26,433 bases of DNA from an uncultured Methanosarcinales archaeon. Lineage in GTDB: Archaea > Nanobdellota > Nanobdellia > Woesearchaeales > CAZYIM01. The position numbers and the translations under genes are program-made. The notes under the pieces were generated by a model. The model was not told the DNA's origin. It saw nothing but the letters and a program-made list of their open reading frames with translations, and did not search any database. This document shows positions 513-26,433 of the stretch, one piece after another; the stretch's first letter is position 1; each line of letters opens with the position of its first letter. The stretch lies in the NCBI GenBank assembly GCA_964647565.1, contig CAZYIM010000034.1, positions 1 to 26,433 on the forward strand, in the 5' to 3' direction.

Positions 513-518
513 AATAAA

Positions 519-2051: not shown

Positions 2052-2062
2052 ACTTTCCACCT

Positions 2063-7115: not shown

Positions 7116-7445
7116 ATGGGACATATTAATCATCAAACCAAGGGAAATCAACTAACTTTGAATGAAATTGATATTCTTAAGACCATGAACATTGCCTACA
7201 TTAAAAATGATAAACAAACACTAGCAAAAGCTACTGAATCCTCAAAACAACCCGAAGTTTTTTATCAAGGTATCAACCAATTACTCGAGTTAGGAGCTCA
7301 CGACCAGATTGTTAATGTGGTAAAGAATCGACCAGTCGGTGTCCGGGCTCAATTATTACAATATTATGTGGAAACACAAAATTTCTTGTATGCTAGTGTA
7401 ATAGCAAGCATGGGCAATGGCATCAAGATTCCTTATAAGAATTAA
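7116..7445 (+). CDS. Hypothetical protein (109 aa, probably alpha-helical)
   Basis: ORF placed at the leaderless distance from a clear BRE-TATA. No motif recognised. Confidence 0.7.
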   Translation: MGHINHQTKGNQLTLNEIDILKTMNIAYIKNDKQTLAKATESSKQPEVFYQGINQLLELGAHDQIVNVVKNRPVGVRAQLLQYYVETQNFLYASVIASMGNGIKIPYKN

Positions 7446-7509
7446 TCCTTCTATTTTTATTACTTCGCCTAAAAAAGAACATTCACTTTTCACTAAATAG
7501 TAGTTATAT

Positions 7510-7580
7510 AAACGAAATATTTAAATATCTTTCTATGTTCCAAGAATCGGGATATCAATCTAAACTTTGAGTAAGGAGGA
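7510..7580 (+). promoter_or_regulatory. BRE-TATA promoter and SD of the ubiquitin-like operon
   Basis: AAACGAAATATTTAAATA (TATA 7520-7527), near-identical to the 7077-7091 promoter. SD AAGGAGGA at 7573-7580, 6 nt before ATG 7587. Confidence 0.75.
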
Positions 7581-7586
7581 ATTAAG

Positions 7587-8276: not shown

Positions 8277-8287
8277 ATATCTTTAAA

Positions 8288-9691: not shown

Positions 9692-9703
9692 GGGTGAAAT
9701 AAA

Positions 9704-11119: not shown

Positions 11120-11152
11120 GAAATAGAAATTAAAACGAGAACATAAGAAAAA

Positions 11153-12691
11153 ATGAGTGAAGATAGGTATTCAAGACAGAAAAAAATAGAAGGCTGGGAC
11201 CAGCAGATGCTGGAAGATGCCAATATAGCTATGGTAGGTGATGGGTCAGTCGCATGTTTTGGCGGAGCCTTGATGGCTGCACTGGGTATTGGAAGATCCT
11301 GTCTTTATGGTAATTCCAGATTCAAGGGATACCACCCTGATGAGTTTATGTATGCTGAACTTACCAAAGGCAAGAGAAAGGTCAGGGGACTTGAACAGAG
11401 TATGAAACAGATCAATCCAACTATTGACGTAGAAAGCTATCGTTGGGCATTTCTCAGGGACTATTTCACAGACATCTTCTCAGATAATACATCTGCCATA
11501 TTTGACACTACCAATGATCCCCGGACTGAGGCTGCCTTGTTCTCTCATGCAATGACTGCAGATGTGCCTATTGTGAATGCATCTTGTAAAAAATTCAGGG
11601 GAGAATTGTCTGTCTATATGCCTACTGGAGAATTCAAGCATCTAACCTCTTTAGATCATGAAGAAATCACAAAGGAAACACCTTATCAGCTACTATCAAG
11701 AACCTATAATACCAGAATGGAACAGGATCCTGTTACAGCCTCTTTAATTGCAGGTTTAGCAGTCGATGAGATCAGGAAGATTGTCATGCCCTTGAAATTC
11801 GAGACTGTTAAAGATCAAAACGGTAATAAGATACGGAAAAGCAAGGAGCCGACACTTGAAGGCAGGCTTATCTATGACATCCTGACAGATGATCTGGTAC
11901 ATAGGACAACTAAGTTAAAATCAGGATTTCAACGCGTATACCATCCTGGAAATTTTCAAAATGATATTGTGGCAGCAGTTGTCGGAGCAGGATCTCTTGG
12001 AAATGTTGTAAGTCTACTACTGACTATTATGGGCATTAAACATTATATATTCGACAAGGACATCTATGAGGATGCTAATGTCAACAGACAGATCATGGCA
12101 GTGCTTTACGGTAACGATGTTGGAAAAGCCAAAGCATTATCACTCGCTGAAAAAGACCAGAGGATCAATTATAGGACCAAGGTTGTTGGTGTAAATGATT
12201 GGTTTACACCAGACACCAAGTTCAAGGGCAGGCAACCAGACGTCATATTTGATTGCACCGATAAATACACAGCAATGGAGGCTATTAACTATTGGTCCAT
12301 AAAGAATAAGAAACCCGTCATCACAGGCCATACAGGACCTACAGACGGCCAGACATTTTTCTCTGATATTTATAATGGCATGGAATGTCTTGATGGAAGG
12401 ATGAATGTTATTGAAAATGCTAACATTGAACGAAATCCGGAAAGTTGCATACAGCAATCCAACCCATCTGTAATTATCGCGAACTGGATCATGGGTTCAG
12501 TCATGGTCGATCTCTTCAGGAGATATGCCATGGGTTTACCTGTTGTCAGCTCAAGAGTTAAGTATGATACTAATATTGGCAACAGATTGGCTTCATTGCC
12601 TAACACAACAATGTGCAGATACAAGGATTCTGATGATACAAAACATTACAAGAAATGCGATCACATTGATTATTGTAAATTCGAGGTTTAA
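11153..12691 (+). CDS. E1-like activating enzyme with two tandem ThiF/MoeB adenylation domains
   Basis: The N-terminal domain (DRYSRQ...GWDQQMLEDANIAMVGDGSVA) has a degenerate nucleotide loop. The second domain has intact VVGAGSLG (G278), FDKD..EDANVNRQ, GKAKA, DVIFDCTD and a candidate catalytic Cys432 in PESCIQQSNPS. Confidence 0.92.
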   Translation: MSEDRYSRQKKIEGWDQQMLEDANIAMVGDGSVACFGGALMAALGIGRSCLYGNSRFKGYHPDEFMYAELTKGKRKVRGLEQSMKQINPTIDVESYRWAFLRDYFTDIFSDNTSAIFDTTNDPRTEAALFSHAMTADVPIVNASCKKFRGELSVYMPTGEFKHLTSLDHEEITKETPYQLLSRTYNTRMEQDPVTASLIAGLAVDEIRKIVMPLKFETVKDQNGNKIRKSKEPTLEGRLIYDILTDDLVHRTTKLKSGFQRVYHPGNFQNDIVAAVVGAGSLGNVVSLLLTIMGIKHYIFDKDIYEDANVNRQIMAVLYGNDVGKAKALSLAEKDQRINYRTKVVGVNDWFTPDTKFKGRQPDVIFDCTDKYTAMEAINYWSIKNKKPVITGHTGPTDGQTFFSDIYNGMECLDGRMNVIENANIERNPESCIQQSNPSVIIANWIMGSVMVDLFRRYAMGLPVVSSRVKYDTNIGNRLASLPNTTMCRYKDSDDTKHYKKCDHIDYCKFEV

Positions 12692-12703
12692 GAGGATGGT
12701 AAA

Positions 12704-14614
12704 ATGAAAAAGGACGATAAAAAATCAAAACTGCATGAGTATTTTCTAAGTACTGCAAAAGACGAGGAGGATGAACAAGTACCTGAGGAAGTCAAAAGGA
12801 TGTATCTTCTTTGGTCTCCTACCGACATACAAAGAGCAAAAGACCGCTGGCAGAATCTTAACAGGCACGACCTTTACAAGATCTTGGCTGACCAGCATGA
12901 AAAATTGATTAAAAAGGGTGAAGAACGTCCTCTTACAGATGAAGAAAAGAAGGGTATTTTTGAAAAGATAAATGCTCTCAACCCGTTCATTGACCAGGCT
13001 AATGGAGACGAGACAATGAAAAAAGATCTTGTCCAGATTGCTTCTGACCACGGTCTTAACCCAAAAGACTTGGTAGTGAGAGCAGCTCAATATCTAAGTG
13101 GAAAAATCGATCCAAACTCACTTAAGAGATATGAGAAAAAACTTCATGAAGAGATGATCAAGACCAGGAAATCTGGTTTCAAGGAGGCAAAAAGACGGGG
13201 CATGCAAGAATGGAAGGAGCAGTTCCGCCCTAACCGGATCATCATGAGAAGGACCTTGCGAGCATTAGGTATTGTTGCTGCACTTGGAATTGCATTTGCA
13301 TTTTACACTTCTTTTAAGTCGGAGAGAGCCAAGAGAAATTTCTATGACAAAGTAGTCGAAGAGGTGCGCGGAGGAGGTTCTGGCGCTGATGCTAGGCAGT
13401 CTCAGGTTGATGATAATTATACTCCTAAAGAGCATCTTGACAACATTGTCAAAGGGATTACAGGTAGTCAAGATTCTACTGAAGTAAAAACTGAGCAGAG
13501 ACAAGAACAGCAAAGACCTCCCGTGGAAAAGCCTAAACCAAGGCCGCCTGCAACAATATCTTCAATTGTTGATTCTGTATACAAGCAGATCAAGGATGAC
13601 AATCTGAAGGCCCAGACTTTCAAGGTCAATCCTGTTAATGTCAGTTATACTAATCTCACCAATAGCGGATCTGTATCAAGACTTAAAAGAGCCCTTGAGA
13701 TGGAAATAGGTAATCAAAGCTATGTGACGACCATAAGCAAGGCAAGACTTGCACAAAAAATAGATAGTTTAAAAAACATTGTTTCAGACTATCCTCAAAG
13801 TCAACAGGCATATGAGGCCCAGCTTGAAGTTGCTAAGCTTTCTTTTGAGCATATGGAGATACTAAATGTAGATGGCTTTAAAGAGTATCAACAGTTAATA
13901 ACTCTCTTTGGAAATACTAAGGAGATTTCTACTAATTTCATGAAAGTTTTGATAGACAGGAAGTGGGCAGCGGATTGGTGGAAGATACAACAGTCAGACC
14001 GACAGGAATCTGCTGTCGCCCAAAAGAGCAGGATAGCTAATAAAATTGTCCAGTGGCTTGAGAATCAAGCTATCAAAACCAATCCTGTTGGTTACGAAGC
14101 AAACTATATACTAGGTCAGATTTTAGCAGGAGAAAAAGAGCTGCAGAGCGTTTATCAAAAAGATGCAAATGACTTAATATACCTTCACACAGAATTCCTT
14201 TCTAGTGTTTCAGGATTAGACAAATCAAATAATGCGATGCAGGCAAGATATTCTGCAAGTGCAAGGGGAGGCTGGGATCGAGCTGCTCGAGCCAAGTTTT
14301 CTTATGCAGTCGGTTCAGGACGAAATAATGGTAGCAAACTTAAGAATCTTGCAGATGCCTTGAAATATGACCAGAAGGCCCGATGGGTTCCAAGAGCAAT
14401 TTATCTGATAGCAGAGACTGAAGTTCAGATGAAGAATATGGATCTGGCTGAAGACTGCATGAATTTCTTACAGAAAAATTTCCCAGGTAATGAATCCAGT
14501 GGAGTCGGAAGTCTTGTAAGGCAGATATCAGATTACAGAGCAAAACAGGTTGAGGTGGCAAAGGCTAAGTCGGAAGCTGATTATAAAAAACTAAAGGAGA
14601 AAAGTCGTAAATAA
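12704..14614 (+). CDS. Single-pass membrane protein with a charged N-terminal domain and C-terminal TPR-like repeats
   Basis: Basic stretch then hydrophobic ALGIVAALGIAFAFY (about residues 187-201), a Pro/Gln linker, and BamD/YbgF-like TPR signatures IVSDYPQSQQAYEAQLEVAKL and AIYLIAETEVQMKNMDLAEDCMNFLQKNFPGN. Confidence 0.7.
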   Translation: MKKDDKKSKLHEYFLSTAKDEEDEQVPEEVKRMYLLWSPTDIQRAKDRWQNLNRHDLYKILADQHEKLIKKGEERPLTDEEKKGIFEKINALNPFIDQANGDETMKKDLVQIASDHGLNPKDLVVRAAQYLSGKIDPNSLKRYEKKLHEEMIKTRKSGFKEAKRRGMQEWKEQFRPNRIIMRRTLRALGIVAALGIAFAFYTSFKSERAKRNFYDKVVEEVRGGGSGADARQSQVDDNYTPKEHLDNIVKGITGSQDSTEVKTEQRQEQQRPPVEKPKPRPPATISSIVDSVYKQIKDDNLKAQTFKVNPVNVSYTNLTNSGSVSRLKRALEMEIGNQSYVTTISKARLAQKIDSLKNIVSDYPQSQQAYEAQLEVAKLSFEHMEILNVDGFKEYQQLITLFGNTKEISTNFMKVLIDRKWAADWWKIQQSDRQESAVAQKSRIANKIVQWLENQAIKTNPVGYEANYILGQILAGEKELQSVYQKDANDLIYLHTEFLSSVSGLDKSNNAMQARYSASARGGWDRAARAKFSYAVGSGRNNGSKLKNLADALKYDQKARWVPRAIYLIAETEVQMKNMDLAEDCMNFLQKNFPGNESSGVGSLVRQISDYRAKQVEVAKAKSEADYKKLKEKSRK

Positions 14615-14626
14615 AGAGGTTGAGCT

Positions 14627-16162
14627 ATGAAAAAATTCCTTAAACAGCTGGGATGGACTGCACTCCTTGGACTTGGATTGCTTACAGGATGTTCGAGTGA
14701 TGATGAAGTTGTTGAACCTGTTGTTGTTAATCCAAAAGATGCTTCTATTAGAGAACTAGTTGAACAAGAAGAGCTTTATAATGGCCAGACTGTGCGGACT
14801 TTTGGAAAGGTCGTTGCAATTTCTGACCATGATTATATAGAAAATCTAAATCCCCAGCACGATGTTACCATAAGGATATTAAATACTTTCTTGCACAAAG
14901 TCGATCTTTTTAGGACTTATAGTCTTGAAAAAGCTGATAAAGCAGGAATTGCCAGCTTTCAATCCGGCATGCTTGATCTAGAACAACTTAAAGTAACTCG
15001 CTCATCACTATCTGCAATAGGTTTGTTCAACAATGGAAAGATCAGGTACACCAAGCTTATCTCACCATCCGGAGATATCTTGTTTGAGCGACATGATATC
15101 CAACCTCAGGAATTCAGGGGCAAGATTGTTGATCTAAACCAGATGAAGTATTCTTCTGCTGGGGGAAGTACCTATTACCAGTCAACCCTAAAGCTGAAAA
15201 AAGAAGATGATAAATTTTTTTCATTTGTATTTAATCTGGCTTCTCTTAATGCTTATAATAAATATATTAATTCCAATGTTGTAGTCAAATGCACCCAGGA
15301 ACTTATCAACAATAAATCCTTTGTTGGTGAAGAGATTGAATATATAATGCCGAAACCTCCAGAGCTAGACAAGAAAAAAAGAGCCTTTTGGCAAAAGCTG
15401 GGTGGTGCAGAGGTTAGCGCAGAGCTAAAAGAACTTTATTCTGCCATTGGAAAAGAGGAAGCCCTTTTCAAGGATATAAAGAAGCAGGACAGGGAATTGA
15501 CTTTTGGCGCTGCAATGGTCGTCTATGACGAGTCAAAAAGGATATGGGATCTTGCTGTTGCTAATAATTGCAAGGAGCTGATAGATATCAGTGTTGATCT
15601 GACCAAAGAGGCAGCTTATTCTATGGTCAACCTGAAGGAATATGGCCTTGCTGCTGAGATGTTTAAGTCAAGAGCTATGGATGAGACAGGTTATGGAGTC
15701 ATCACTTCAGGTATTTACTCATTATCTGTTGACGGCAGACATTATGATGCTGCCCGGCTTGCACAAAGTTACAGGCTTGATGATGATGTAGCAACCCAGT
15801 ATGATAAGTGCATTGACCGCCTTTTGGACAGAGCTCTTTGGGCTGAAGCCTGGGATGTGATCCAGGAAGCTAATTCAGGCTTTGAATACAGGGAAAAGAT
15901 AGCAGAAATCAAGGAAGAATTATCTGAAAAACAACAGAAGTTTGCTGTTGGCGACAGCGTCCACACTTATGTTGATTATGCTTTACAGAATAACAAGAAT
16001 GCACGGTTTTATGGGCCTTCAATCAAGGATTTTTATGGCAGGATCGTCTCATTTCCAGATATTGGCCGTGCTGAGATCAATGGATGGCATGTGACTGCCA
16101 ATGATACCACCCAGTTCAAGGGCATTGTACCTGTTGACAGGATGAAGAAAAAGAAGGATTAG
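14627..16162 (+). CDS. Putative lipoprotein (possible OB-fold N-terminal region, helical-repeat C-terminal region)
   Basis: Signal peptide MKKFLKQLGWTALLGLGLLTG-C with lipobox LTGC. SIRELVEQEELYNGQTVRTFGKVV is OB-fold-like. SD AGAGGT. Confidence 0.72.
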   Translation: MKKFLKQLGWTALLGLGLLTGCSSDDEVVEPVVVNPKDASIRELVEQEELYNGQTVRTFGKVVAISDHDYIENLNPQHDVTIRILNTFLHKVDLFRTYSLEKADKAGIASFQSGMLDLEQLKVTRSSLSAIGLFNNGKIRYTKLISPSGDILFERHDIQPQEFRGKIVDLNQMKYSSAGGSTYYQSTLKLKKEDDKFFSFVFNLASLNAYNKYINSNVVVKCTQELINNKSFVGEEIEYIMPKPPELDKKKRAFWQKLGGAEVSAELKELYSAIGKEEALFKDIKKQDRELTFGAAMVVYDESKRIWDLAVANNCKELIDISVDLTKEAAYSMVNLKEYGLAAEMFKSRAMDETGYGVITSGIYSLSVDGRHYDAARLAQSYRLDDDVATQYDKCIDRLLDRALWAEAWDVIQEANSGFEYREKIAEIKEELSEKQQKFAVGDSVHTYVDYALQNNKNARFYGPSIKDFYGRIVSFPDIGRAEINGWHVTANDTTQFKGIVPVDRMKKKKD

Positions 16163-16169
16163 ACGAGAG

Positions 16170-16207
16170 AAAAGGCAATATTTATATAGTGAAACCACTT
16201 CCAAGTG
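16170..16207 (+). promoter_or_regulatory. BRE-TATA promoter with a downstream palindrome (candidate operator)
   Basis: AAAAGGCAATATTTATATA (TATA 16181-16188), followed by inverted repeat CACTT-CC-AAGTG at 16196-16207. Confidence 0.65.
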
Positions 16208-16211
16208 ACTA

Positions 16212-16327
16212 AAAGGGGCGAGATTCATGTTCGCAGATTGGCGAAGGGATGGCTTTGGATAATATCATCCATTCCACACGACTAACAGTCGTAATAAAAA
16301 CAAACGAGATTAGGAGGAAGAATAAAA
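16212..16327 (+). promoter_or_regulatory. Long structured 5' leader (three consecutive hairpins) ending in SD AGGAGG
   Basis: Stems TTCGC/GCGAA (16230-16245), GGATG/CATCC (16247-16270) and ACGACT/AGTCGT (16278-16292). SD at 16312-16317. Confidence 0.4.
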
Positions 16328-17452
16328 ATGGCAAACAAAGATAAAGATAAAGTTCGTGATGATACTGGCAAAGAAGAAGTCAGCATTCAAGATCTCTACA
16401 GGGGTATTAACCTTGATGAGAAATTTCACGAAGCAAAACGAGATTCATCAGCAAATCTCCAAGAGATTGAAGCATCAGACAAGGCATATGAAGATGTTAC
16501 AAAGCAGCTAAGAAGTTTGGTAAAGAAAGCTAATACCTATAGGGTGAAGGCAGAAACAGGTTTTGACAAGGAAAAGGCAAAAGGAATATGGAAGCTTCTT
16601 GGGAAATTTTTTCCAAAAACAGTTGCAAAAAGGTATAAGACCCATTTCACTGATCTTCTTTTCAAGTCAATCAAGGAGATCTATGCTCTTGGAGAAACAA
16701 TTGACAACCTGATAATAGACGTAGCCAAAAAACATGGTGAATTAAGGAATTTTTCAGATACCTACCTTATGAACATGCAACAAACTGCTATTACAAACAT
16801 GAAGAAATATATGAGCGAGGTTGATAATTTCGGTAACCAACTTGAAACTTTAGAAGGAAAGCTTACTGAATTTACAACAGATGCAGAATTCAAAAGCCAA
16901 GAATACCTGAGCTTGAAGAAACAAAGGGGTATTCTCGAGGATAACCTGGACATGGCAGAGGATGGTTTAATAAGTGCAACCATAAGATTTGATGTGGCTG
17001 AAGACCATTATTACCAGTCAGTCGAATTGATGAAGAAATTCGACAACACCAAAGATGTACTCAAACCATTCAATGAGAAGGTAATGCTTAAGATGAAACT
17101 TTCTGAGAAGCTACTCCCATATAGGAGAGTGTTGGATAAGCTAGTTGATGCTGGAAGCGACATTTTCAAGCTTGATGCAGAATTTGATCAGATCATTGTT
17201 GCACATGAATTGGCTCAAAGCCAAAAGATCGAGACCTTGAGCAAGGTGATCAGCGGTGAACTGATGAATAAGACATATGAGCCTATCATCAAGGCACAAG
17301 CAGAGTCAAGCGAAAGGGTAAGGCAGATCATCATGGGCGTGCACGCACAATATGTCGAAAGTGTTAGAACTGGAGATAGGGAGAAAAACTATATTAAGAC
17401 CATGGATGAAATTAAGCGCGGCGAATCTCCTGCCCAGCAGACTGAGAAATAA
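16328..17452 (+). CDS. Long coiled-coil protein (TelA/PspA-like architecture; family uncertain)
   Basis: Almost wholly helical, heptad-rich 374-aa sequence with an amphipathic segment KGIWKLLGKFFPK. It has its own promoter, a strong SD and a terminator. Confidence 0.65.
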   Translation: MANKDKDKVRDDTGKEEVSIQDLYRGINLDEKFHEAKRDSSANLQEIEASDKAYEDVTKQLRSLVKKANTYRVKAETGFDKEKAKGIWKLLGKFFPKTVAKRYKTHFTDLLFKSIKEIYALGETIDNLIIDVAKKHGELRNFSDTYLMNMQQTAITNMKKYMSEVDNFGNQLETLEGKLTEFTTDAEFKSQEYLSLKKQRGILEDNLDMAEDGLISATIRFDVAEDHYYQSVELMKKFDNTKDVLKPFNEKVMLKMKLSEKLLPYRRVLDKLVDAGSDIFKLDAEFDQIIVAHELAQSQKIETLSKVISGELMNKTYEPIIKAQAESSERVRQIIMGVHAQYVESVRTGDREKNYIKTMDEIKRGESPAQQTEK

Positions 17453-17464
17453 TAATCGAAAAAA

Positions 17465-17500
17465 GAGACTCGATAAGAGTCTCATTTTTTTCTTTTTTTT
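17465..17500 (+). terminator. Intrinsic terminator (hairpin plus long T tract)
   Basis: Perfect 7-bp stem GAGACTC-GATAA-GAGTCTC (17465-17483), followed by ATTTTTTTCTTTTTTTT. Confidence 0.8.
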
Positions 17501-17503
17501 AAA

Positions 17504-18703
17504 ATGAACAGATCTATTTTAGAGATTGAAGGAAACATTGTAAAACACGTAAAAAAAGAGATTTACTTAGAGAAGCTGCTATTAGCCATCTCAGAGATAA
17601 ACAATAATTTGAAAAAAGAGGACGCCGAATTCTACAAGAATAATATTTTTTTTAATGAAAGAGTCATTGATTATCTGGAGTTCTTTCGCTTGGCATCTTT
17701 AGAGAACAAAATTAAAGGCGGCAATCACTATGAGTTGTTAATAAGCCCTTCAAATGGATTTCCTGTCTGGGGAGAGACAGTTCGCCTCAGTAAACAACTA
17801 GAACGGGGTAAATCCAAACTTGAACAGACCATCAGAGAAAACATGATTAAATATCACACAGGAGAGGGTAAGGAATACAACGCAGAAAATTTCCTTGATG
17901 CAATCGCCCTGGAAGGAGTCAGAACCATGTTGATGGGCGGAAAAGCTTATCTCCAAAGGACAGCACTTAGAGACTTTTTGCATTATACTCGCTTATTGAA
18001 GATAACAGACAAGGAGAATGATTCTGAAGAGAACAAATTCCTGTTAGACATGTTCAACGATGATGCCACCGTCAGATCTGAAATCATGAGCAAGTCTGGA
18101 GACAAAGGGGTCTATAAATTTAATTTCTATAAGCTGCACAAGACTGACTTTTTATGGACTTATATGACTGTCACATTAGGATATCAGCAGCCAAAAGGCT
18201 CAATCATAAACCGTTCATTGATTGAGGAAAAATCCGACGGAAGCTGGCTACCCAAAGGAGATCTGTTCGATGCATTTGAACATGGCGTAGTCCATGATTT
18301 TTCCCTTCGATCACTATATAAACAACTATGCACAGTAAAGAATGTCCAGCCTTTAAGTATGGCCTTCTACACCTTAGGCCCGTTCTATCATCCGGAGGGT
18401 ATCAAGACTGCAGAATTGAACAGACTATTCACCAATAGACCTGATGCATTCATGCTAATGTATGCATGCGAGGCCCTTGGCAATGATCCTGATCATATAA
18501 TAGATGGAAAGGAATTCTACAAGGAATACCAGACCAAATACACAATTGCAACAACATCTGATGTCGGAATCGACTTCAGCGAGATGTTCGGAGCAAACAG
18601 TGTTGTTGATGTTACTGAAATTCATCCTATAAAGGTAGATCAGATCATTAACAGATATAAAAATTCAAATCCTCGATTTGGAAAAGAATTGGAGAGTGAA
18701 TAA
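17504..18703 (+). CDS. Hypothetical protein (AAA-ATPase-associated)
   Basis: 399-aa ORF ending 2 nt before the AAA gene. Motifs SNGFPVW and YTLGPFY recall, from memory, the uncharacterised gene preceding related AAA ATPases in bacteria. Confidence 0.7.
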   Translation: MNRSILEIEGNIVKHVKKEIYLEKLLLAISEINNNLKKEDAEFYKNNIFFNERVIDYLEFFRLASLENKIKGGNHYELLISPSNGFPVWGETVRLSKQLERGKSKLEQTIRENMIKYHTGEGKEYNAENFLDAIALEGVRTMLMGGKAYLQRTALRDFLHYTRLLKITDKENDSEENKFLLDMFNDDATVRSEIMSKSGDKGVYKFNFYKLHKTDFLWTYMTVTLGYQQPKGSIINRSLIEEKSDGSWLPKGDLFDAFEHGVVHDFSLRSLYKQLCTVKNVQPLSMAFYTLGPFYHPEGIKTAELNRLFTNRPDAFMLMYACEALGNDPDHIIDGKEFYKEYQTKYTIATTSDVGIDFSEMFGANSVVDVTEIHPIKVDQIINRYKNSNPRFGKELESE

Positions 18704-18705
18704 TA

Positions 18706-20481
18706 ATGCAAATGAGTAGTACACCATCAGAAATAAATGATGCAGATTTCAACAAACATCTGAAGAGTTCAATAAAGTATATGGGACAACAAAACTTCTT
18801 TGGTTTCCTGCCAAACCTACATTCAACGATTATCCCTCCAGAAGTTCCATTCATCGATCCTGTACAGTATAATACTGTAATGGCCTTTGCTGATTCTTGC
18901 GCAGCATATAAGGTTATCAAAGAAAAGATGTCATATAATCTACTTGATTATAACAAGGAAAGAACCGTAAAACCTACTAAGACTGAATTAGATGCTCAAG
19001 AAAGGTTGGTCCAGATATACAGTCTGTATGTAGCCACATCAATAGGCATGAAAAAGTTGGCAAATACAACTAATGTCCAGGAAGAAGCTACCATAAAACT
19101 AAAAAAAGAAGATTTTAAGCATTTCAATGAATTTGATTTCTCAAAACAAGGCTCCGACATGTTCAATCAGTTCGCAAATCATTATATAGGTCTTATTCTT
19201 AATGCCAACAAAGCTGGGAAAATCAGGAATGGTGCAGACTTCAATGTTTTTTCACAAGGTTATCTTGCATCTATAAATGAAAAGGCTAATTATGAAAAAA
19301 ATGACGGCATCTACAAACCGTTAATGGGAATAATTGAAGGGCAGCCTATAAGTCTTCTTGGTATGAATTTCAGGGGATTTCAAGAAGCATTGCTAAGAAC
19401 ACTCGATCCAGAATCTCTACCTAAACTCGAGTGGGTCATTGCCATGGATGCTGTCAAGGAAGCAGCTGTCCAGATGGTTGATAATATAATGTGCTATGAT
19501 TTTGAGGCCAAGAAAAACTCTCAGGATCCCTGCAGGCAGGTCATGTATGTTCCTGGCCCTTCAGGCTGTGGAAAGACCTTCACTGCAGAAGCTGTTCAAA
19601 GATATTTTATCGAACAAGGAGAACAATATAGAAAACCAACCAATGTGTTTACATTATCTCCGGACATGTTCAAGACATCTTATATGAATGAAGGTCCTAA
19701 CAACTTGATTGCTATATTTAGGGATAAGGTCTATACGCCAAATACCCTGAATTTCATGTACATTCCGGATCTGGACACAATCATTGCATCAAGAAGTGCT
19801 GCAAAAGCTGCAAACAGGATTGAAGATGCAAACCTTACAGGAGTCTGGTTCAGCCAGCTATCTGGCAGTAACCGACCAGATACAGGCAGGTGGATGATCT
19901 ATGCTGATACCAACTACCAGGTTAATGATCCAGCACTCTTAGGAAGGTTAGGGCAGCCGATAATTGCCTCAGGTCCAAAAACGCAGGATGACCTTATAGC
20001 TCTTATGCGAATTGAGTTGAAAGATGGATTCTTGCCTAATAAGAATTATGTTAAACTCAAAGATAAGGAATGGAAAGAAGTAGGAAAACTGGCTGAAGAA
20101 TATGCTGCAGAGGCTAATCTGTCTGGAAGAGATGTAAGAAACATTTGCGAGACTCTAAGTAATCATGCTAACCAGTTCAAGCTGCCAAAGGGTTTCCAGG
20201 GCTGGTCATATCAAAAACAACTTGATCATAAAGCTAAACACCAGGTTTACAAGCCAATAACAGCTGGGATGTTAAAAAAGGAACTTAATACCTATGTTGA
20301 AAGTGTGAAGGCTGCTGTGGACAGGGAACAAGAAGAGAAGAAAGCCAAGATCATTGAAGATCTGCATCTTACAAGAGAGGCTTATGCTTCTGATGAAGAA
20401 TCAAGGATAAGTCTCTTTAGAGAGTTGGCTGCTCAGATACCTAAAGATCAGATGGTAAGTATAATCAGGAAAGTTATCTAA
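18706..20481 (+). CDS. Classical-clade AAA ATPase with a degenerate Walker B
   Basis: Walker A GPSGCGKT (residues 284-291), pore-loop region KTSYMNEGPNNL, Walker B position FMYIPDLD, SRH-like DTNYQVNDPALLGRL and lid LSGRDVRNIC. The ~235-aa N-terminal domain is unassigned. Confidence 0.88.
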   Translation: MQMSSTPSEINDADFNKHLKSSIKYMGQQNFFGFLPNLHSTIIPPEVPFIDPVQYNTVMAFADSCAAYKVIKEKMSYNLLDYNKERTVKPTKTELDAQERLVQIYSLYVATSIGMKKLANTTNVQEEATIKLKKEDFKHFNEFDFSKQGSDMFNQFANHYIGLILNANKAGKIRNGADFNVFSQGYLASINEKANYEKNDGIYKPLMGIIEGQPISLLGMNFRGFQEALLRTLDPESLPKLEWVIAMDAVKEAAVQMVDNIMCYDFEAKKNSQDPCRQVMYVPGPSGCGKTFTAEAVQRYFIEQGEQYRKPTNVFTLSPDMFKTSYMNEGPNNLIAIFRDKVYTPNTLNFMYIPDLDTIIASRSAAKAANRIEDANLTGVWFSQLSGSNRPDTGRWMIYADTNYQVNDPALLGRLGQPIIASGPKTQDDLIALMRIELKDGFLPNKNYVKLKDKEWKEVGKLAEEYAAEANLSGRDVRNICETLSNHANQFKLPKGFQGWSYQKQLDHKAKHQVYKPITAGMLKKELNTYVESVKAAVDREQEEKKAKIIEDLHLTREAYASDEESRISLFRELAAQIPKDQMVSIIRKVI

Positions 20482-20482
20482 G

Positions 20483-22213
20483 ATGGATGATATCAGAAAA
20501 CTGATCGAAAAGAGACTAAGGGACAAGGTTAGAAAGCCTTTGCCTGATGATCCAACTAGTCCTCCGCCTGAAGAAGTTCAGGAATCAGAATCAAGCGAAC
20601 TTTATCCGCCTATAATAGGATCTGGAAGTGTAACAGCTTCATCTATTCGGGATTTGATCGAACAAAGAAACCGGGAACGTCATGGCATTGGTTCTCGACA
20701 AACTGGTTCTCAAACTAGACAGACCGGACCAGTAGAGCATCACGGCAGCGGTATGCTGGATAACATTAGGAACAGGAAGAAAAAGAAGTTCGATGCAACC
20801 AGGAAAAAGCGTAGCAATCCTTCGGAACTCTTAAGATCCAGCCATACATTGAAACTTCATGAATTAACCGGAAGCAAAGCAGAGGCTTATACCAATATAT
20901 TAAAAGAGATTGGAGCTTATCAGGATATTGTCAAGAAAGAGCCTAGTTTTGATTTTTCTCATTATGAGGTTGACAAGGGAGGCTGTGATAGGAGAATAAT
21001 GGAGATCGCACCTGATTATCTTGATAATCATATCGTCATTGTTACGCCGCACCAGAAAAACATGGATATTATTCGGAACAATTATTCATTCTTAGATCCT
21101 TTGCTTGAAGCCATCATGAATGGTGCTGCTAAAGAGACTATTGCAAGGATTGCCCCTCACGAACCATTATATGGGGAACTTAAATCAGGATTAGTAAATC
21201 TAATCGAACAATTAAATTTTGGAGCCAATCACATTGTTGATGAGGATTTTTTCTCAGTCACTTTATCACTTGACACACCAAAAAAAGCGATAAAGAAAAT
21301 GGTTGAGATCCAGAAGGATGTAAGCAAGATCCTTGACCAGGATAATGATGGAGTGCTTCAACTTCTGAATTACGATCTTGAGGATAAGATTGCATCTGCT
21401 TCTGCAGAGCTCAATGCAACTTATGTGAATATTACACCATTTATCCTTGGTGATGCAAGTGAGTTCATAGTTCAGGACATCTTCCCATTACAGCTAGAGA
21501 CCAGCTCATACAAGTTTTCAACTGATGAAATAGACATCTATAGTTTCAAGACCAATAAATATGTTTTTATATATTTTGACAAAGGGGAAGACACAGTAGA
21601 TAACAAGAACATAGATATCCGCAACTTTGTTGTCATAAATGGCAATGATCCAGACAACCTTCTAGCGTATCTAAGGGACTTGAAGTTCATTGATTATAAT
21701 TTCAATCAATTCTTTGTTGAAGAAAAGATGCAGCATATTGAGGCAAGGGACTTTGAAAGGTATAAACGTACTCAAATATCAGGATTAGCAGATGAAATTG
21801 ATAAGCTTGGCCAGGATAAAGATCATCATTCCGAACTCTATCATCAACTCAAAAAGGTTCATGATGATATTGCAAAAGATAATATTGGCAATGAAACCGA
21901 CTATCTTAAGACACTCCCTTTACAGGTCAAGATGCAGTTGATGTTTCCACGGGTAGACGATCCATTAGTTTATGAGATATTATCCAATGTAAATAAAAAC
22001 GAGATGTTGATGACATATTCATGGGATACTTCTAAGTTCAAGTTGCAATTTGCTGCTGCAAAGCCCAAACAGCAAAAAGAGATGCTGCAGGAAGTGCTTG
22101 AAGGCATCAAATACGAAGATCAGTATAATCTTGCTGTCAATGAGTGGCTGCATGACAACTACAAACCTCTTTGCGACGAACTTAAAGTAAAGTTTAAGGG
22201 TGGTGAGCAATGA
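20483..22213 (+). CDS. Hypothetical protein, DUF6638-like core with a disordered N-terminus
   Basis: Starts 1 nt after the AAA stop, with ~115 low-complexity residues. The following AEAYTNILKEIG...HYEVDKGG...DYLDNHIVIVTPHQK...YGEL resembles my recollection of the DUF6638 N-terminal pattern (unverified). Confidence 0.55.
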   Translation: MDDIRKLIEKRLRDKVRKPLPDDPTSPPPEEVQESESSELYPPIIGSGSVTASSIRDLIEQRNRERHGIGSRQTGSQTRQTGPVEHHGSGMLDNIRNRKKKKFDATRKKRSNPSELLRSSHTLKLHELTGSKAEAYTNILKEIGAYQDIVKKEPSFDFSHYEVDKGGCDRRIMEIAPDYLDNHIVIVTPHQKNMDIIRNNYSFLDPLLEAIMNGAAKETIARIAPHEPLYGELKSGLVNLIEQLNFGANHIVDEDFFSVTLSLDTPKKAIKKMVEIQKDVSKILDQDNDGVLQLLNYDLEDKIASASAELNATYVNITPFILGDASEFIVQDIFPLQLETSSYKFSTDEIDIYSFKTNKYVFIYFDKGEDTVDNKNIDIRNFVVINGNDPDNLLAYLRDLKFIDYNFNQFFVEEKMQHIEARDFERYKRTQISGLADEIDKLGQDKDHHSELYHQLKKVHDDIAKDNIGNETDYLKTLPLQVKMQLMFPRVDDPLVYEILSNVNKNEMLMTYSWDTSKFKLQFAAAKPKQQKEMLQEVLEGIKYEDQYNLAVNEWLHDNYKPLCDELKVKFKGGEQ

Positions 22214-23088
22214 GAAGAGGCAGAAGCACGATTGGTTTTGAATTGACGCTATCTGTTTTAGTTTTAGGATTAGTTGGAGCCGTTCTTTGGCCCAAAATAA
22301 GTGAAAAAAAAAAGCAAAATACAATAGCTGAGAAAGTAAGATCTGCAAAGCAGGTCACTAGAGTGGTCAAGCAGCATGAATCTTCATATGCAATCTCAGA
22401 TGCCAAGTTGCTCAATGTCAATGAGGGTGTTGTTGACTTCAAGACTAAAGAAGGCAAGCCAGGAAGCAGGATGTACAAGTTATGCATATTTCAAACTGAT
22501 AATGATCCTAAATATTTCCTTCTTCCAGCACCTCAAGCTTTAGCACCGATGAAAAAATATGTTATTCAATATAACAACATATATAGGGTCTCAGATTTTA
22601 CGACAGAACGGTTTGTTAACCAGCATATTAACTCTACCTACATCACAGAAAGTGATAAGATTATTGATCCTCAACTTGACGGCGTTATAACCAATCTAGA
22701 CCTTAATGAAAAAACATGTACAAACTCATTGGCTACAGAGGCCACTAAACATCTGCCTGCAGCAAAATTCCTCTACTCTACCAACGATATGATCAAGTAT
22801 TATGATGAAGAAGGGAATACAGGCACACATTTCTACCAGCTTTGTACTTTTCAGATAGGCAACCAGATCACTGAGCTGTTGAATCCTAATCATAAAGCAT
22901 TATGGCCAAACAGGATGTATGAAATCGAGATCGATGAGGTTCATAAAAATCCGCAAACATTCACAACAGGTAACCTCGCATTGATGTATGCGTCTAATAA
23001 ACTTGTAAAAGTTGTAGATAACAGATTAATCGATCCAAACCTGGATGGCGTAATCAAGGATATAAAAATGGTCGGGGTTCTACGATGA
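22210..23088 (+). CDS. Membrane-anchored protein with two copies of the array domain (paralog 1)
   Basis: N-terminal TM helix, then two repeats: AKLLNV...YKLCIF...LLP...IIDPQLDGVI and AKFLYS...YQLCTF...LLNP...LIDPNLDGVI. ATGA overlap with the upstream gene. Confidence 0.85.
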   Translation: MRRGRSTIGFELTLSVLVLGLVGAVLWPKISEKKKQNTIAEKVRSAKQVTRVVKQHESSYAISDAKLLNVNEGVVDFKTKEGKPGSRMYKLCIFQTDNDPKYFLLPAPQALAPMKKYVIQYNNIYRVSDFTTERFVNQHINSTYITESDKIIDPQLDGVITNLDLNEKTCTNSLATEATKHLPAAKFLYSTNDMIKYYDEEGNTGTHFYQLCTFQIGNQITELLNPNHKALWPNRMYEIEIDEVHKNPQTFTTGNLALMYASNKLVKVVDNRLIDPNLDGVIKDIKMVGVLR

Positions 23089-23675
23089 TGAGCCCCATGA
23101 TACGAAGAGGTTTAAAAGTAGCAGGAATTTTTGCTGGACTTTTTTTCGTTGGAGCCATGATAGTTGACATCGCTGATAGTTTCAAAAACAACAATACTGC
23201 AATAGCCAATAATGCACAACCAACTGCTCAAGAAGATTCTCTTGCAAGAGCTGTGGATGATACTAGCACAGGTTATGTAGATAGGATTGTTCGAATGATA
23301 CCTCCTCAAGCTGAGGTTTCATTAGAAGAGAACATACCTACTGCAAAGCTTATATCAGTACAAGATGATATTGTCTCTTTCTATAATCCAGATGATAGAC
23401 AAAGTAGTTACAGGGGAACCAGGCTGATCAAACATTGCTCATTCCAGGTTGGAACTGAGATAAGGGAATATTTGATGCCATCTGGCAAGGCATTGATACC
23501 TATGCGGATGTATGAACTCGATGTTGAGAAGCTGGAAAAACCAGAGGAATACACTGCAATAATGTTTGTCCAAAGATTTCTTCATGAAGATTACAGCTCA
23601 AGAGACAAGCGTGTCATTGATAAGAATCTTGATGGGATTATCTTAGATTATAAGCTTCTGGAGGGTCCAAAATGA
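23085..23675 (+). CDS. Membrane-anchored array paralog 2
   Basis: N-terminal TM helix and IPTAKLISV...CSF...YLMP...VIDKNLDGII. ATGA overlap. Confidence 0.85.
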   Translation: MMSPMIRRGLKVAGIFAGLFFVGAMIVDIADSFKNNNTAIANNAQPTAQEDSLARAVDDTSTGYVDRIVRMIPPQAEVSLEENIPTAKLISVQDDIVSFYNPDDRQSSYRGTRLIKHCSFQVGTEIREYLMPSGKALIPMRMYELDVEKLEKPEEYTAIMFVQRFLHEDYSSRDKRVIDKNLDGIILDYKLLEGPK

Positions 23676-24172
23676 ACAAACTGGCAACAGGATTGATGAT
23701 AGCAATGATGGGAATTACTCTTGGATACGCTCAAACTGAAGCCCTTGCAAGTTTACCAATTCAAGAAAAGGCTGCAAAAGAAGAAAAAAAGCCGGCGCTT
23801 GATAACATACCTGCTGCAAAGCTATTGGCAGTCAATCAGGATAATTTCATACTCTATCTAAAGGAGGATCATCGTGTTAGTGCAAGTAGGAATTTTCAAC
23901 TTTGTTCATTTTTAGTAGGAACAGAGATAAGGGAATATCTTTTACCTACTGTCAAGGCCTTAGTACCCATGAAGATGTATCAGCTTGAGATCAAGATAAT
24001 CAATAATGCAAAGAATTACAAAACAAGCAATCTTGCTACAGAAGGTCTCAATATTGATAGCTGGGAACTTAAAGATAATCGAGTAATTGACAAGAACCTT
24101 GACGGAATAATCATGGATTACAAACTTCTGAGAGGTCCAAAATGAGAAGGCTAGCAACTGGACTATTGATAT
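23612..24172 (+). repeat. Degenerate ~90-bp direct repeat spanning gene junctions 2/3 and 3/4
   Basis: GTCATTGATAAGAATCTTGATGGGATTATCTTAGATTATAAGCTTCTGGAGGGTCCAAAATGAACAAACTGGCAACAGG (from 23612) versus GTAATTGACAAGAACCTTGACGGAATAATCATGGATTACAAACTTCTGAGAGGTCCAAAATGAGAAGGCTAGCAACTGG (from about 24083). Confidence 0.8.
23672..24145 (+). CDS. Secreted array paralog 3
   Basis: Signal peptide MNKLATGLMIAMMGITLGYA (no lipobox Cys) and IPAAKLLAV...FQLCSF...YLLP...VIDKNLDGII. ATGA overlap. Confidence 0.85.
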   Translation: MNKLATGLMIAMMGITLGYAQTEALASLPIQEKAAKEEKKPALDNIPAAKLLAVNQDNFILYLKEDHRVSASRNFQLCSFLVGTEIREYLLPTVKALVPMKMYQLEIKIINNAKNYKTSNLATEGLNIDSWELKDNRVIDKNLDGIIMDYKLLRGPK

Positions 24173-24732
24173 CAACGATAGGACTGGGTCTTGGATGTCA
24201 GATAGACACAGATAATTCTTACGAGGATACATTCGCTCCTGTTGCCACTGAAGAAAAAGTTGAACCCACACCTGCTGAAAAGTTAGAAGAAAAAAGAAGC
24301 AAAGAAAGCGTAAAAAAAGAAGATGGTTCTGTTATGTTTATCAATACTAAGGAAGAATACACAATTGATGATATTGCAGAATCAAGTATCATAGATTTAC
24401 CTGGCGCAAAGTTAAATGGCTTTACCATTGACAATGTGGATTACTTATGGTGGATGACTACCGATCCTACAGGACACAGGAGATACCAAATGGTTGAGTT
24501 TCAGCTTGCAGAAGGTCCAACGCTTCTATTGTTGCCAAATGTTAAGCATCTAAATCCTCAAACAAGATATGACATTTCATATAAAAGATTACACGAGGAT
24601 GTCAAGCTAGACAAATATCTCTTTACAAGGATTTTCATCAACACAATATACACCTGCCTTGACAACCAACCAATGGATGAAAGCATCAAAGGCATTGTCA
24701 CCAGTATCAAACCAGTGGAGGGACTGAAATGA
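24142..24732 (+). CDS. Lipoprotein array paralog 4
   Basis: Lipobox GLGC and LPGAKLNGF...YQMVEF...LLLP...MDESIKGIV. ATGA overlap. Confidence 0.85.
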   Translation: MRRLATGLLISTIGLGLGCQIDTDNSYEDTFAPVATEEKVEPTPAEKLEEKRSKESVKKEDGSVMFINTKEEYTIDDIAESSIIDLPGAKLNGFTIDNVDYLWWMTTDPTGHRRYQMVEFQLAEGPTLLLLPNVKHLNPQTRYDISYKRLHEDVKLDKYLFTRIFINTIYTCLDNQPMDESIKGIVTSIKPVEGLK

Positions 24733-25229
24733 GAGCACTGGCAACAACTATGCTGGCAACAATGCTTAGTTTTTATGCAATGAGTTGCAGCACTCAAAAA
24801 AAAGAAGATAACGCCATCCCACCTTTGCCACCTATTGCTGCAGTGGCTGAATTAGACACTGTTTCAATTCCAGGAGCTAAACTCAGCTGGTACAACGATG
24901 GTTCAGCAGAATACATTCATGGAGATAGAAGTGGTAATACAAGCTACGGATTCAGCTCTTCAAGAGACTATCAACTATGTGACTTTGACATAGGTGGCAA
25001 GGATGTCAAGCTCTTGGCACCAAGAGTATACCAGATCACACCACAAAAACGCTATGATATCCAATACCTGCCGATGAAAGAGGGTCAATACCTGAACATA
25101 AAGAAATTCATCCATCTATTTGTCAGGAATGACAATATGGAAGATGTCAGGGTTCCTGATAATCATGAGATGGACAGGGACATAAGAGGCATACTTATCG
25201 ATATAAAACCAATGGAGAACATAAAATGA
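24729..25229 (+). CDS. Lipoprotein array paralog 5
   Basis: Lipobox AMSC and IPGAKLSWY...YQLCDF...LLAP...MDRDIRGIL. ATGA overlap. Confidence 0.85.
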   Translation: MRALATTMLATMLSFYAMSCSTQKKEDNAIPPLPPIAAVAELDTVSIPGAKLSWYNDGSAEYIHGDRSGNTSYGFSSSRDYQLCDFDIGGKDVKLLAPRVYQITPQKRYDIQYLPMKEGQYLNIKKFIHLFVRNDNMEDVRVPDNHEMDRDIRGILIDIKPMENIK

Positions 25230-25745
25230 ACTGGAAAAAAGGATTAATAATACCAGTGATAGGATTGACACTTCTAAGTTGTGCTTCTGATGAAAAGATT
25301 GAGCCAGAAAAGATGGAAAAGACATCCACGATCAGCTTAATAGAACAGAATATTGAAAAGGTACCATCTGCAAAACTGATTTCTGTTAATGATGGTTATG
25401 CAAATTATGCGTTTACAAAATCTAGTGGCGCATACCAAGGATTTGGTTATGGGAATTTTAGGCATTATCAATTATGTACGTTTTTAACTGCTCCCAATAA
25501 AATCGAAGCTTTGTTGCTGCCTGAATCTAGAGCATTGATGATCAATTCTAGATACAATTTAAACTATAAGAAATTAAAAAATCCTTCAACATTCACTGTT
25601 GAACAATTTGTCCATAGTTATGTCAGCAATACATTCACTGTTTTTGACAAGATAGAACTGATAGATCCAAATCTGGATGGAATTATAACCAACTTAAAAC
25701 CAATAAGGTAAAAGAAATGAACTGGAAAAAAGGATTAATAATACC
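25224..25745 (+). repeat. 31-bp exact direct repeat covering the start of paralogs 6 and 7
   Basis: AAATGAACTGGAAAAAAGGATTAATAATACC at 25224-25254 and 25715-25745. Confidence 0.9.
25226..25711 (+). CDS. Lipoprotein array paralog 6
   Basis: Lipobox LLSC and VPSAKLISV...YQLCTF...LLLP...LIDPNLDGII. ATGA overlap. Confidence 0.85.
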   Translation: MNWKKGLIIPVIGLTLLSCASDEKIEPEKMEKTSTISLIEQNIEKVPSAKLISVNDGYANYAFTKSSGAYQGFGYGNFRHYQLCTFLTAPNKIEALLLPESRALMINSRYNLNYKKLKNPSTFTVEQFVHSYVSNTFTVFDKIELIDPNLDGIITNLKPIR

Positions 25746-26199
25746 GTTAATCGGATTGAGCCTCTTGGCATGTGGTAAACAGGAACATATATTACCAGAA
25801 AAAAGGGGTCAAGCAAGTATCAGTACTATAGTAGTCAATGAGCAGATAAATGTTCCAAGAGCCAGGCTGCTCGGCGTAACAGATGGATTTGCAGGTTATA
25901 CATTTTCATATGGATCTGACTCAGATGATGAAAGTTTCGGCTACAGTCCCTTTATGCATTACCAGATGCCAACCTTCCTAATCGGCGATGAAAAGGTCTC
26001 GTTTTTGATACCCAATCCCGAACCTCTAGTGCCTAACTCAATCTATGAGTTTGAATACCAAAGGCTTTTGCCGAATAATCCTTTAATGTCAGAAGAGTTA
26101 ATCAAAGTCTATGTAGATAAGTCCTTTGACACACTTCACAACTATAAGCTTAGTGATAAACTAGTCGGCATAATCAATTATATAAAACCAATAATGTGA
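25717..26199 (+). CDS. Lipoprotein array paralog 7
   Basis: Lipobox LLAC and VPRARLLGV...YQMPTF...FLIP...LSDKLVGII. Confidence 0.85.
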   Translation: MNWKKGLIIPLIGLSLLACGKQEHILPEKRGQASISTIVVNEQINVPRARLLGVTDGFAGYTFSYGSDSDDESFGYSPFMHYQMPTFLIGDEKVSFLIPNPEPLVPNSIYEFEYQRLLPNNPLMSEELIKVYVDKSFDTLHNYKLSDKLVGIINYIKPIM

Positions 26200-26204
26200 A
26201 ACAA

Positions 26205-26433
26205 ATGAAATGGAAAACAGCATTAATGATACCCGTGATGGCAACTTTTTTAGCCTGCGGCGGTCAGAGGCATGTTGAACCTGAAGAAAAGGGAAAAGCA
26301 AGTATCAGCACTATTGCCATTGATGAACTTGTTAATATTCCAAGAGCAAAACTGCTTAGTGTAACAGATGGATACGCTGGCTACACATTTGCACATGAAG
26401 AAGGTGAAGATGCAACATACAGTTTCAGCCCAT
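26205..26433 (+). CDS. Lipoprotein array paralog 8 (3'-truncated; absent from the ORF track)
   Basis: Manual translation: MKWKTALMIPVMATFLACGGQRHVEPEEKGKASISTIAIDELVNIPRAKLLSVTDGYAGYTFAHEEGEDATYSFSP. Lipobox FLAC; close to paralog 7. Confidence 0.85.
   Translation, partial: MKWKTALMIPVMATFLACGGQRHVEPEEKGKASISTIAIDELVNIPRAKLLSVTDGYAGYTFAHEEGEDATYSFSP

Follow-up and report, generated by a model that had tools for sequence, protein, structure and literature searches.

What kind of system is encoded by the four genes, A to D, that follow one another at positions 16328-22213 of a contig from an uncultured archaeon? The stretch analysed, hereafter the window, is contig C34 of assembly GCA_964647565.1 at its full length of 26,433 nucleotides. 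An earlier note written from its sequence had taken the four genes for an archaeal version of an uncharacterised cluster containing DUF6638, possibly acting in filament formation or membrane remodelling. Comparison of the encoded proteins with archaeal and bacterial sequences indicates that the genes are very probably a divergent archaeal copy, here called W-type, of a four-gene module common with Proteobacteria. This module is conserved across the two domains and has a fixed core consisting of a B-family protein, an AAA ATPase of the classical clade and a protein of the DUF6638 family. The host, already considered archaeal in the earlier note, is a Woesearchaeales (DPANN) archaeon. Its assembly of 2.68 Mb in 86 contigs is 87% complete and large for the order, the other sampled genomes being 0.6-2.3 Mb in size. 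The source DNA was present in 8 DNA runs from 2 marine/seawater metagenome studies, and no RNA dataset was listed among the sequencing runs with the source DNA.

Gene order, homology and distribution of the module

The four genes of the window are the following.

16328-17452, forward strand: gene A, 374 amino acids, helical, rich in lysine and glutamate, probably coiled-coil (open reading frame listing)
17504-18703, forward strand: gene B, 399 amino acids, conserved B family of the module (open reading frame listing, hhalign)
18706-20481, forward strand: gene C, 591 amino acids, classical-clade AAA ATPase (open reading frame listing, Pfam)
20483-22213, forward strand: gene D, 576 amino acids, divergent DUF6638 relative (open reading frame listing, profiles)

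The open reading frame list agrees with the four co-directional frames that the earlier note had described. The intergenic gaps are 51 nucleotides between A and B, 2 between B and C and 1 between C and D, and D overlaps the next open reading frame, which starts at 22210, by 4 nucleotides. All genes from 7116 to the window end at 26433 lie on the forward strand, and neither a signal peptide nor a transmembrane-like segment was found in any of the four. The synteny was examined in 26 loci with clustered open reading frames and then in six more. The grouping of the four genes is beyond chance because 12 loci of Type I and 5 of Type II in Woesearchaeales, described below, and two bacterial records have the genes in the same order; the neighbourhood comparison by which the earlier note had proposed to check its reading has thereby come out in favour of a conserved four-gene order.

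The bacterial form was located by a tblastn search of PLSDB with a canonical DUF6638 member, which gave 10 records (Sinorhizobium 4, Vibrio 4, Shinella 1 and Rhizobium 1). The locus of Vibrio parahaemolyticus NZ_CP062152 encodes hypothetical proteins of 359 and 371 amino acids, an 'ATP-binding protein' of 634 and a DUF6638 protein of 412, and that of Sinorhizobium meliloti CP090106 encodes proteins of 362, 382 and 638 amino acids, followed by an insertion sequence, a DUF6638 protein of 429 amino acids and a DUF2333 protein. The bacterial cluster is therefore alike in gene order, in protein sizes (~360, ~375, ~635 for the AAA protein and ~420 amino acids) and in its homologous B, C and D, and it is annotated only as hypothetical, ATP-binding and DUF6638. 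Bacterial C matched Type II C at 1e-62, bacterial D matched Type II D at 1e-30, and bacterial B matched the archaeal B families at 5e-7 to 1e-5. Bacterial A matched Type II A at 1e-6 and no other archaeal type. Window B was aligned by hhalign to the pooled bacterial and archaeal B family with a probability of 95.5% and an E-value of 1.4e-8 over 282 collinear columns. Judged from these profiles, B, C and D are homologous across archaea and bacteria, and the Sinorhizobium loci, with the same order and with B, C and D matched, substantiate the alphaproteobacterial DUF6638 cluster that the earlier note had named. The window likewise has a helical, a B-family, an AAA and a DUF6638-related protein in this order on one strand, A corresponding by position and composition only. 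Unlike the bacterial cluster, the window has a longer D, with an N-terminal low-complexity stretch of ~105 amino acids and no direct PF20343 match, an A without detectable homology, and a position in a separate clade. A full-text literature search for 'DUF6638' gave no paper, and no functional study of the module was found in the literature searched.

The relationship of D to DUF6638 is indirect. Window D did not match the Pfam DUF6638 model (PF20343, gathering score 27 bits) at E <= 0.1, nor did anything in its own genome at E <= 10. D is related to the family because intermediates match both D and PF20343: the D of locus L011 in genome G012, the closest genomic relative of window D, matched window D at 5e-44 and PF20343 with 29.1 bits, and protein P0118 matched them at 1.3e-21 and with 34.1 bits, respectively. 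Type II D proteins scored 78-82 bits against PF20343 and the D of locus L048 21.9 bits. Out of 1.84 billion proteins, a hidden Markov model of 28 D-family members retrieved 532 representatives (E <= 0.001), and PF20343 was matched by 37 of 60 sampled family members, at best with 5.4e-112. The sequences thus place D as a divergent DUF6638 relative in a separate clade and not as a Pfam-defined member; the earlier description of D as DUF6638-like holds for homology through intermediates and profiles and fails for a direct PF20343 match. A FastTree phylogeny of 88 D-family rows, midpoint-rooted for drawing only, contained three groups. The Type I clade had an SH-like support of 100, the window grouped with P0058 and L011 (support 96) within a wider group including L048 and L049 (support 84), and the bacterial clade was sister to archaeal Type II with a support of 97. 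A tblastn search of phage records with D gave no match.

Three layouts were distinguished in Woesearchaeales. Type I (12 loci) has an A-position protein of ~400-520 amino acids, B of ~375, AAA of ~575-675 and D of ~465, usually together with a ~765-amino-acid MoxR/ChlI-like AAA+ gene, a short helical protein and a vWA protein; the P-loop region of the ~765-amino-acid protein weakly matches AAA/Mg-chelatase and has the canonical P-loop GPPGSGKS. Type II (5 loci with all four genes and two further loci with B-AAA-D) has A of ~372, B of ~370, AAA of ~630-690 and D of ~430-490 amino acids followed by two unknown genes, and is the archaeal subtype nearest to the bacterial form. The W-type comprises the window, genome G390 (L048), a 4-kb contig of G012 (L011) with C and D only and, loosely, genome G350. 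No further close W-type locus was recovered in the genome and metagenome contig searches, since metagenome contigs searched with W-type D and C alignments and genome contigs searched with D alone gave no match. With few exceptions among the loci examined, B and D adjoin C. Searched with a profile built from D and four relatives, 19 of 401 genomes from the order and 18 of 401 from a phylum-wide sample contained the D family, and the family is accordingly a minority, patchy trait. The window thus represents a new subtype of a catalogued but uncharacterised module, for which three subtypes and a fixed core are now defined where databases know only a DUF and an 'ATP-binding protein'. Two observations concern single loci. 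The D found by tblastn at 10001-11374 of the Type I locus L067 is not an intact open reading frame and consists of fragments, possibly owing to a frameshift or a pseudogene. Loci L061, L066 and L072, which belong to the same GTDB order, are deposited as Methanosarcinales or Acidobacteriota, probably as labelling or binning artefacts.

The ATPase, its two partners and the helical protein

Protein C matched the Pfam AAA model PF00004 with 32.2 bits (cut-off 21.2) over residues 281-417. Its best PDB matches were spastin (3.5e-5) and the proteasomal Rpt3 (7.5e-5), and its homologues weakly match Cdc48, PAN, CdvC and FtsH models, by which C is assigned on sequence to the classical AAA clade. C carries Walker A (GPSGCGKT), a pore-loop aromatic residue (SYMNE), the sensor-1 residue N403, and R414 and R475. 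The Pfam score, the Walker A motif, the sensor-1 asparagine, an arginine of the second region of homology and the aromatic pore loop expected of a classical AAA protein are all present, so that the ATPase recognised in the earlier note is confirmed by domain match and motifs, and the two motifs quoted there, MCYDFEAKKN and GPKTQDD, were both located in C. Among 28 C-family sequences G287, G289 and K290 of Walker A, N403 and R414 are invariant and R475 is nearly so. All 28 have an aromatic residue (Y, F or W) at the pore-loop-1 position, which fits a predicted ring that grips polypeptide. The Walker B motif is atypical: C has FMYIPDLD, and the family has the form hhhh-x-D-x-D instead of the canonical hhhhDE. 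The window has P at position x, Type I proteins have A or S, and those of Type II and others have D or E. Of the 28 sequences, 18 carry A, P or S at the first acidic position, and at the second 27 carry Asp and one Glu. The N-terminal ~250 amino acids are family-specific and contain no Pfam domain. This region showed no likeness to the AAA domain by hhalign (probability 0.3%), and an MIT domain was not matched in C by Pfam at E <= 0.1. A word-indexed homologue search with C gave one relative of 45% identity.

A second C-family AAA protein, of 540 amino acids and ~30% identical to C over the AAA domain, is encoded on contig C9 of the same genome (1-14000, L012). Its gene string comprises, in order, a 329-amino-acid protein, the AAA protein, proteins of 584 and 764 amino acids, a PP2C phosphatase, a Ser/Thr kinase, a TPR protein, proteins of 490 and 467 amino acids and another TPR protein, and contains no recognisable D.

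Direct family scans of A, B and D with Pfam, NCBIfam, PADLOC and PHROGs gave nothing above threshold. The structure model of B, with a mean predicted local distance difference test score (pLDDT) of 69.3 and a predicted template modelling score (pTM) of 0.71, begins with four long helices and continues into a beta/alpha domain. The model of D, made from a 28-row alignment (pLDDT 75.3, pTM 0.64), has an alpha/beta domain at ~110-300 (pLDDT ~85-96), a beta region and a helical C-terminus; the residues D164, G167, Q191 and T265, conserved throughout the family, sit in the alpha/beta domain, and the N-terminal ~105 amino acids are of low complexity. Fold searches with both models, searched as whole models, in which large size may mask single-domain matches, gave no convincing solved relative, and PDB sequence and profile searches were empty. 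Weak SPX-TTM and T-fold rows for the B model were not accepted. An Atlas search with D residues 108-320 gave no usable match, and a word-indexed search for B gave no homologue.

Gene A is surrounded by possible expression signals of its own.

16183-16190, forward strand: TATA-box-like sequence TTTATATA, ~140 nucleotides 5' of gene A; possible archaeal promoter element, its function read from sequence
16312-16317, forward strand: AGGAGG, Shine-Dalgarno-like, 10 nucleotides before the ATG of A
17465-17500, forward strand: hairpin and T-run between A and B, terminator- or attenuator-like, with a 7-bp stem GAGACTC/GAGTCTC at 17465-17483

The separate expression signals noticed earlier for A are consequently present as a TATA-like box and a Shine-Dalgarno-like site, with the hairpin and T-run on the 3' side. 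The protein is rich in K, E, L and D and has a hydrophobic periodicity of 3.5 residues (heptad-like) at ~29-60, 100-175 and 232-270, so a coiled coil is likely. Coiled-coil Pfam models gave sub-threshold matches only, and of the coiled-coil assignment made in the earlier note the periodicity and composition stand while the domain matches stay below threshold. A word-indexed search of 5.8 billion proteins found no homologue but A itself, PDB sequences and profiles gave no relative, and the Pfam models Snf7, PspA and TelA were not matched at E <= 0.1. An Atlas feature search listed, at rank 12 with a score of 0.90 and low recognition, a cluster with TelA in 10% of its members, which serves as a lead only. 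The A slot is filled by helical proteins of ~360-450 amino acids in all related loci. Profile searches did not join A to any A-position family; the best of these by hhalign, that of Type I, gave an E-value of 1.7e-3 and a probability of 15%, which is not significant. A is equivalent to the A-position proteins by position and composition only, as far as its sequence indicates.

The E1/JAB genes and other neighbours

The module stands within a longer string of genes that runs from 7116 in the order o01 (109 amino acids), o02, o03, JAB, E1, a transmembrane protein, a lipoprotein, A to D and a series of small paralogues. The neighbouring features are as follows.

7587-12691, forward strand: E1 module, consisting of o02, o03, a JAB/JAMM peptidase and a tandem-ThiF E1
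7587-9691, forward strand: o02 (229 amino acids) and o03 (467 amino acids), preceding JAB and E1
9704-11119, forward strand: JAB/JAMM peptidase, PADLOC JAB 8.3e-5, HxHx7Sx2D intact
11153-12691, forward strand: tandem-ThiF E1 (o05), 512 amino acids, PF00899 3e-36 over stretches 5-156 and 275-461, PADLOC E1-E2 2.4e-14
12704-16162, forward strand: a 636-amino-acid single-transmembrane protein with weak TPR/BamD-like matches and a 511-amino-acid lipoprotein with lipobox LLTGC
22210-26433, forward strand: small-paralogue array of 8 genes, 157-292 amino acids, secreted or lipoprotein, immediately following D, the last truncated at the window end

The E1/JAB module was not among the observations of the earlier note. 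With a ThiF-type E1 and a JAMM peptidase of intact motif, it has the pair of genes looked for in a conjugation operon of ubiquitin-like proteins (Ubl). In the N-terminal ThiF domain of the E1 the glycine motif is degenerate (MVGDGSVAC) and NRQ is absent, and the C-terminal one has GAGSLG and NVNRQ. Eukaryotic E1s consist of an inactive and then an active adenylation domain, the same arrangement as in the tandem-ThiF chain. A Ubl, an E2 or an E3 was not recognised; o01-o03 were unmatched in Pfam, PADLOC and PHROGs, as was o03 in NCBIfam. The unmatched o02 and o03 may be the missing Ubl, E2 or E3 parts. An internal ...PEYGG/EK... of o02 is, speculatively, a conceivable Ubl-like processing site, and homologues of o03 occur at the same position in G390 and on contig C6 of G021.

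Of 401 genomes from the order, 42 encode full-length tandem-ThiF E1 relatives of o05; among these 42 is G120, flagged unpublished. The E1 lies within ~10 kb of a C-family AAA gene in 5 genomes belonging to 5 GTDB families, that of the window among them, and a JAB-like gene stands beside it in each of the 4, all but G350, in which one was looked for. Genome G390 has a 205-amino-acid protein, o03-like, JAB-like and E1 genes on a divergent string from its A-position, B, C and D genes. Contig C13 of G012 has JAB, E1 and a C-family AAA gene cut by the contig end. On contig C6 of G021 a C-like AAA gene is followed by o03-like, JAB and E1 genes and a second JAB-like gene. On contig C42 of G350 the E1 is ~8 kb from D and is followed by a protein like o06, which is encoded in the 12704-16162 stretch of the window. 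In G004 the E1 is 25 kb from D. The E1/JAB and lipoprotein genes of the window are absent from the bacterial loci.

The small paralogues have no match in Pfam. They have lipobox-like N-termini and a common C-terminal ...D(x)NLDGII... motif, and further copies occur in the genome, ~10 on contig C41 (~15.8-20.3 kb) and one on contig C8 (~20.6-21.1 kb). Fast-diverging arrays of such genes follow the module in three places, the window, G390, where 10 small lipoprotein genes directly follow D, and G350, where the proteins are of ~200 amino acids and without signal peptides.

Likeness to described systems and possible function

The closest described parallels come from conflict systems and from protein tagging. 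In the main text of the work on MoxR-vWA-FtsH 'ternary' systems (Kaur, Burroughs, Iyer, Aravind 2020, eLife, PMC7159879), the third component is described as an AAA protein of the classical clade (FtsH-type) in which an inactive FtsH-type AAA domain precedes a second one, and a complex variant is described with JAB, E1, a RING-type E3, a Ubl-E2 fusion and alpha-helical proteins found nowhere else. The module resembles these systems in its classical-clade AAA protein, its lineage-specific helical proteins and, at some loci, its JAB and E1 genes, and the Type I relatives do so also in having a MoxR/ChlI-like AAA+ and a vWA protein. The likeness in theme to the passages of the main text is strong. 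The defining features given there (PMC7159879) were nevertheless not found, as there is no MoxR or vWA gene among the window open reading frames, Pfam shows one AAA domain in C and not two of FtsH type, the MoxR-like protein of Type I carries the canonical P-loop GPPGSGKS and not GXXXTAKS, and no caspase-like or EAD1 effector was seen at the module. The archaeal SAMP/UbaA/JAMM system with PAN/Cdc48, as far as described in the parts of PMC4895103 that were compared, is similar in having an E1-like ThiF protein, a JAMM peptidase and a classical-clade AAA unfoldase; relative to that description the window differs in an E1 with two ThiF domains in one chain, in an AAA protein of a distinct family with B and D, and in having no proteasome genes and no recognisable Ubl at its locus.

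With some reserve, and with a probability put somewhat short of even, the module is suggested to be an accessory AAA-driven protein-remodelling system with a role in stress or conflict, for which Ubl-tagged proteins would serve as input or output in the W-type. It would be a cytoplasmic, ATP-driven machine in which C forms a ring that grips and threads polypeptide by its conserved aromatic pore loop. B and D would be fixed partners of C, as adaptor, regulator or effector, because they are encoded next to C in nearly all loci. A may be produced in excess as a scaffold or substrate for the machine, because it has its own expression signals and a terminator-like hairpin before B. An accessory stress or conflict response rather than a housekeeping role is suggested because of the patchy spread of the module, its swapped accessory genes (MoxR-like and vWA, E1 and JAB, kinase and phosphatase) and the diversifying paralogue arrays. 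The W-type motor would be coupled to ubiquitin-like tagging by E1 and JAB, with tagged proteins as the likely input or output.

Several results speak against this proposal. No E1/JAB genes were found in the flanks retrieved for Type I, Type II and bacterial loci, so the pair is an add-on of one branch and not part of the core. The bacterial loci lie among ordinary genes (tdk, fhs, mfd). PADLOC models were not matched by A, B or D of any subtype, the AAA protein of the module showing generic likeness only to IetA, TRIP13 and mad8, and no effector-type domain (nuclease, protease or pore-former) was found. The scaffold or substrate role proposed for A is read from its position, composition and expression signals, A having no detectable homologue. 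Neither B nor D shows a recognisable fold or catalytic family, which makes 'adaptor' a guess, and the conserved polar residues of D could equally be the marks of an enzyme. The atypical Walker B may imply an ATP turnover that is slow or switch-like, unlike that of a processive unfoldase.

A narrower role would make C, with D and B as cofactors, a dedicated unfoldase or extractor of E1/JAB-tagged proteins, performing a Cdc48- or proteasome-cap-like step without a proteasome, with A as adaptor or main tagged target. The tandem-ThiF E1 beside this AAA family in five genomes of five families (JAB-like gene in four), the intact JAMM motif of the window JAB and the membership of C in the clade of Cdc48, PAN, Rpt and Vps4 agree with such a role, as does the co-occurrence of classical-clade AAA genes with JAB, E1, E3 and Ubl-E2 that the main text of PMC7159879 describes for bacterial conflict systems. 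It is considered unlikely, however, given that Ubl, E2 and E3 went unrecognised, with o01-o03 unmatched in Pfam and PADLOC, that bacterial, Type I and Type II loci have the core but no E1/JAB, and that the order has roughly two genomes with the E1 family for each one with D (42 against 19 of 401), E1 and D each also occurring alone. A quite unlikely role is that of a cytoplasmic chaperone or assembly factor for the surrounding membrane and lipoproteins, whose clients (the transmembrane-TPR protein, the 511-amino-acid lipoprotein and the small lipoproteins) could serve a DPANN cell-surface or host-contact structure. For this speak the single-strand gene string at 7116-26433, with 4-nucleotide overlaps from D into the lipoprotein array, the 10 small lipoproteins after D in G390 and the expansion of the small family on C41 and C8. 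A to D are nonetheless devoid of transmembrane or signal segments, such arrays are missing from Type I, Type II and bacterial loci, and the array of G350 lacks signal peptides.

The reading given in the earlier note, in which A binds membranes and forms filaments in the manner of ESCRT-III or PspA and C disassembles them as a Vps4-like ATPase, is the least probable of those considered. An apparently abundant helical protein, separately expressed 5' of a classical-clade AAA gene, does recall ESCRT-III/Vps4 (archaeal CdvB/CdvC), and the weak NCBIfam matches to the AAA domain of one Type II homologue include CdvC, with 3.2e-7 and well short of the cut-off. On the other hand, the Snf7, PspA and TelA likeness proposed for A found no Pfam counterpart and no PDB relative, MIT was not matched in C as stated above, ESCRT and Psp systems contain nothing that corresponds to the two extra partners B and D, and no sign of membrane contact was seen in A to D. 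Snf7 and PspA proteins are ~220-260 amino acids long, and A with 374 exceeds this size. A relationship to ESCRT-III or PspA is thus unsupported, and 'filament/membrane remodelling' would apply to the module by analogy.

A further-reaching reading, itself very unlikely, would make the W-type a 'tag-and-unfold' system of DPANN archaea that is self-contained and independent of a proteasome. Proteins would be marked by the JAMM peptidase together with an E1 that is eukaryote-like and pseudo-dimeric within a single chain, and would then be processed on the abundant coiled-coil scaffold by the dedicated AAA ring with B and D. If this were true, the DUF6638 module of Rhizobia and Vibrio would be the stripped-down motor of an undescribed class of prokaryotic remodelling machines. 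The repeated genomic link of AAA and E1/JAB genes in archaea without cultured representatives bears on the joint origin of Ubl tagging and AAA unfoldases. DPANN genes that had no function assigned are now tied to genes of the tractable bacteria S. meliloti and Vibrio, and functional work there would annotate several hundred protein clusters, the 532 representatives being those of D alone. At the other end of the window, a housekeeping flank at positions 3-3571 holds the C-terminus of UvrB, an unusually long adenylosuccinate synthetase (513 amino acids) and an IMP dehydrogenase.

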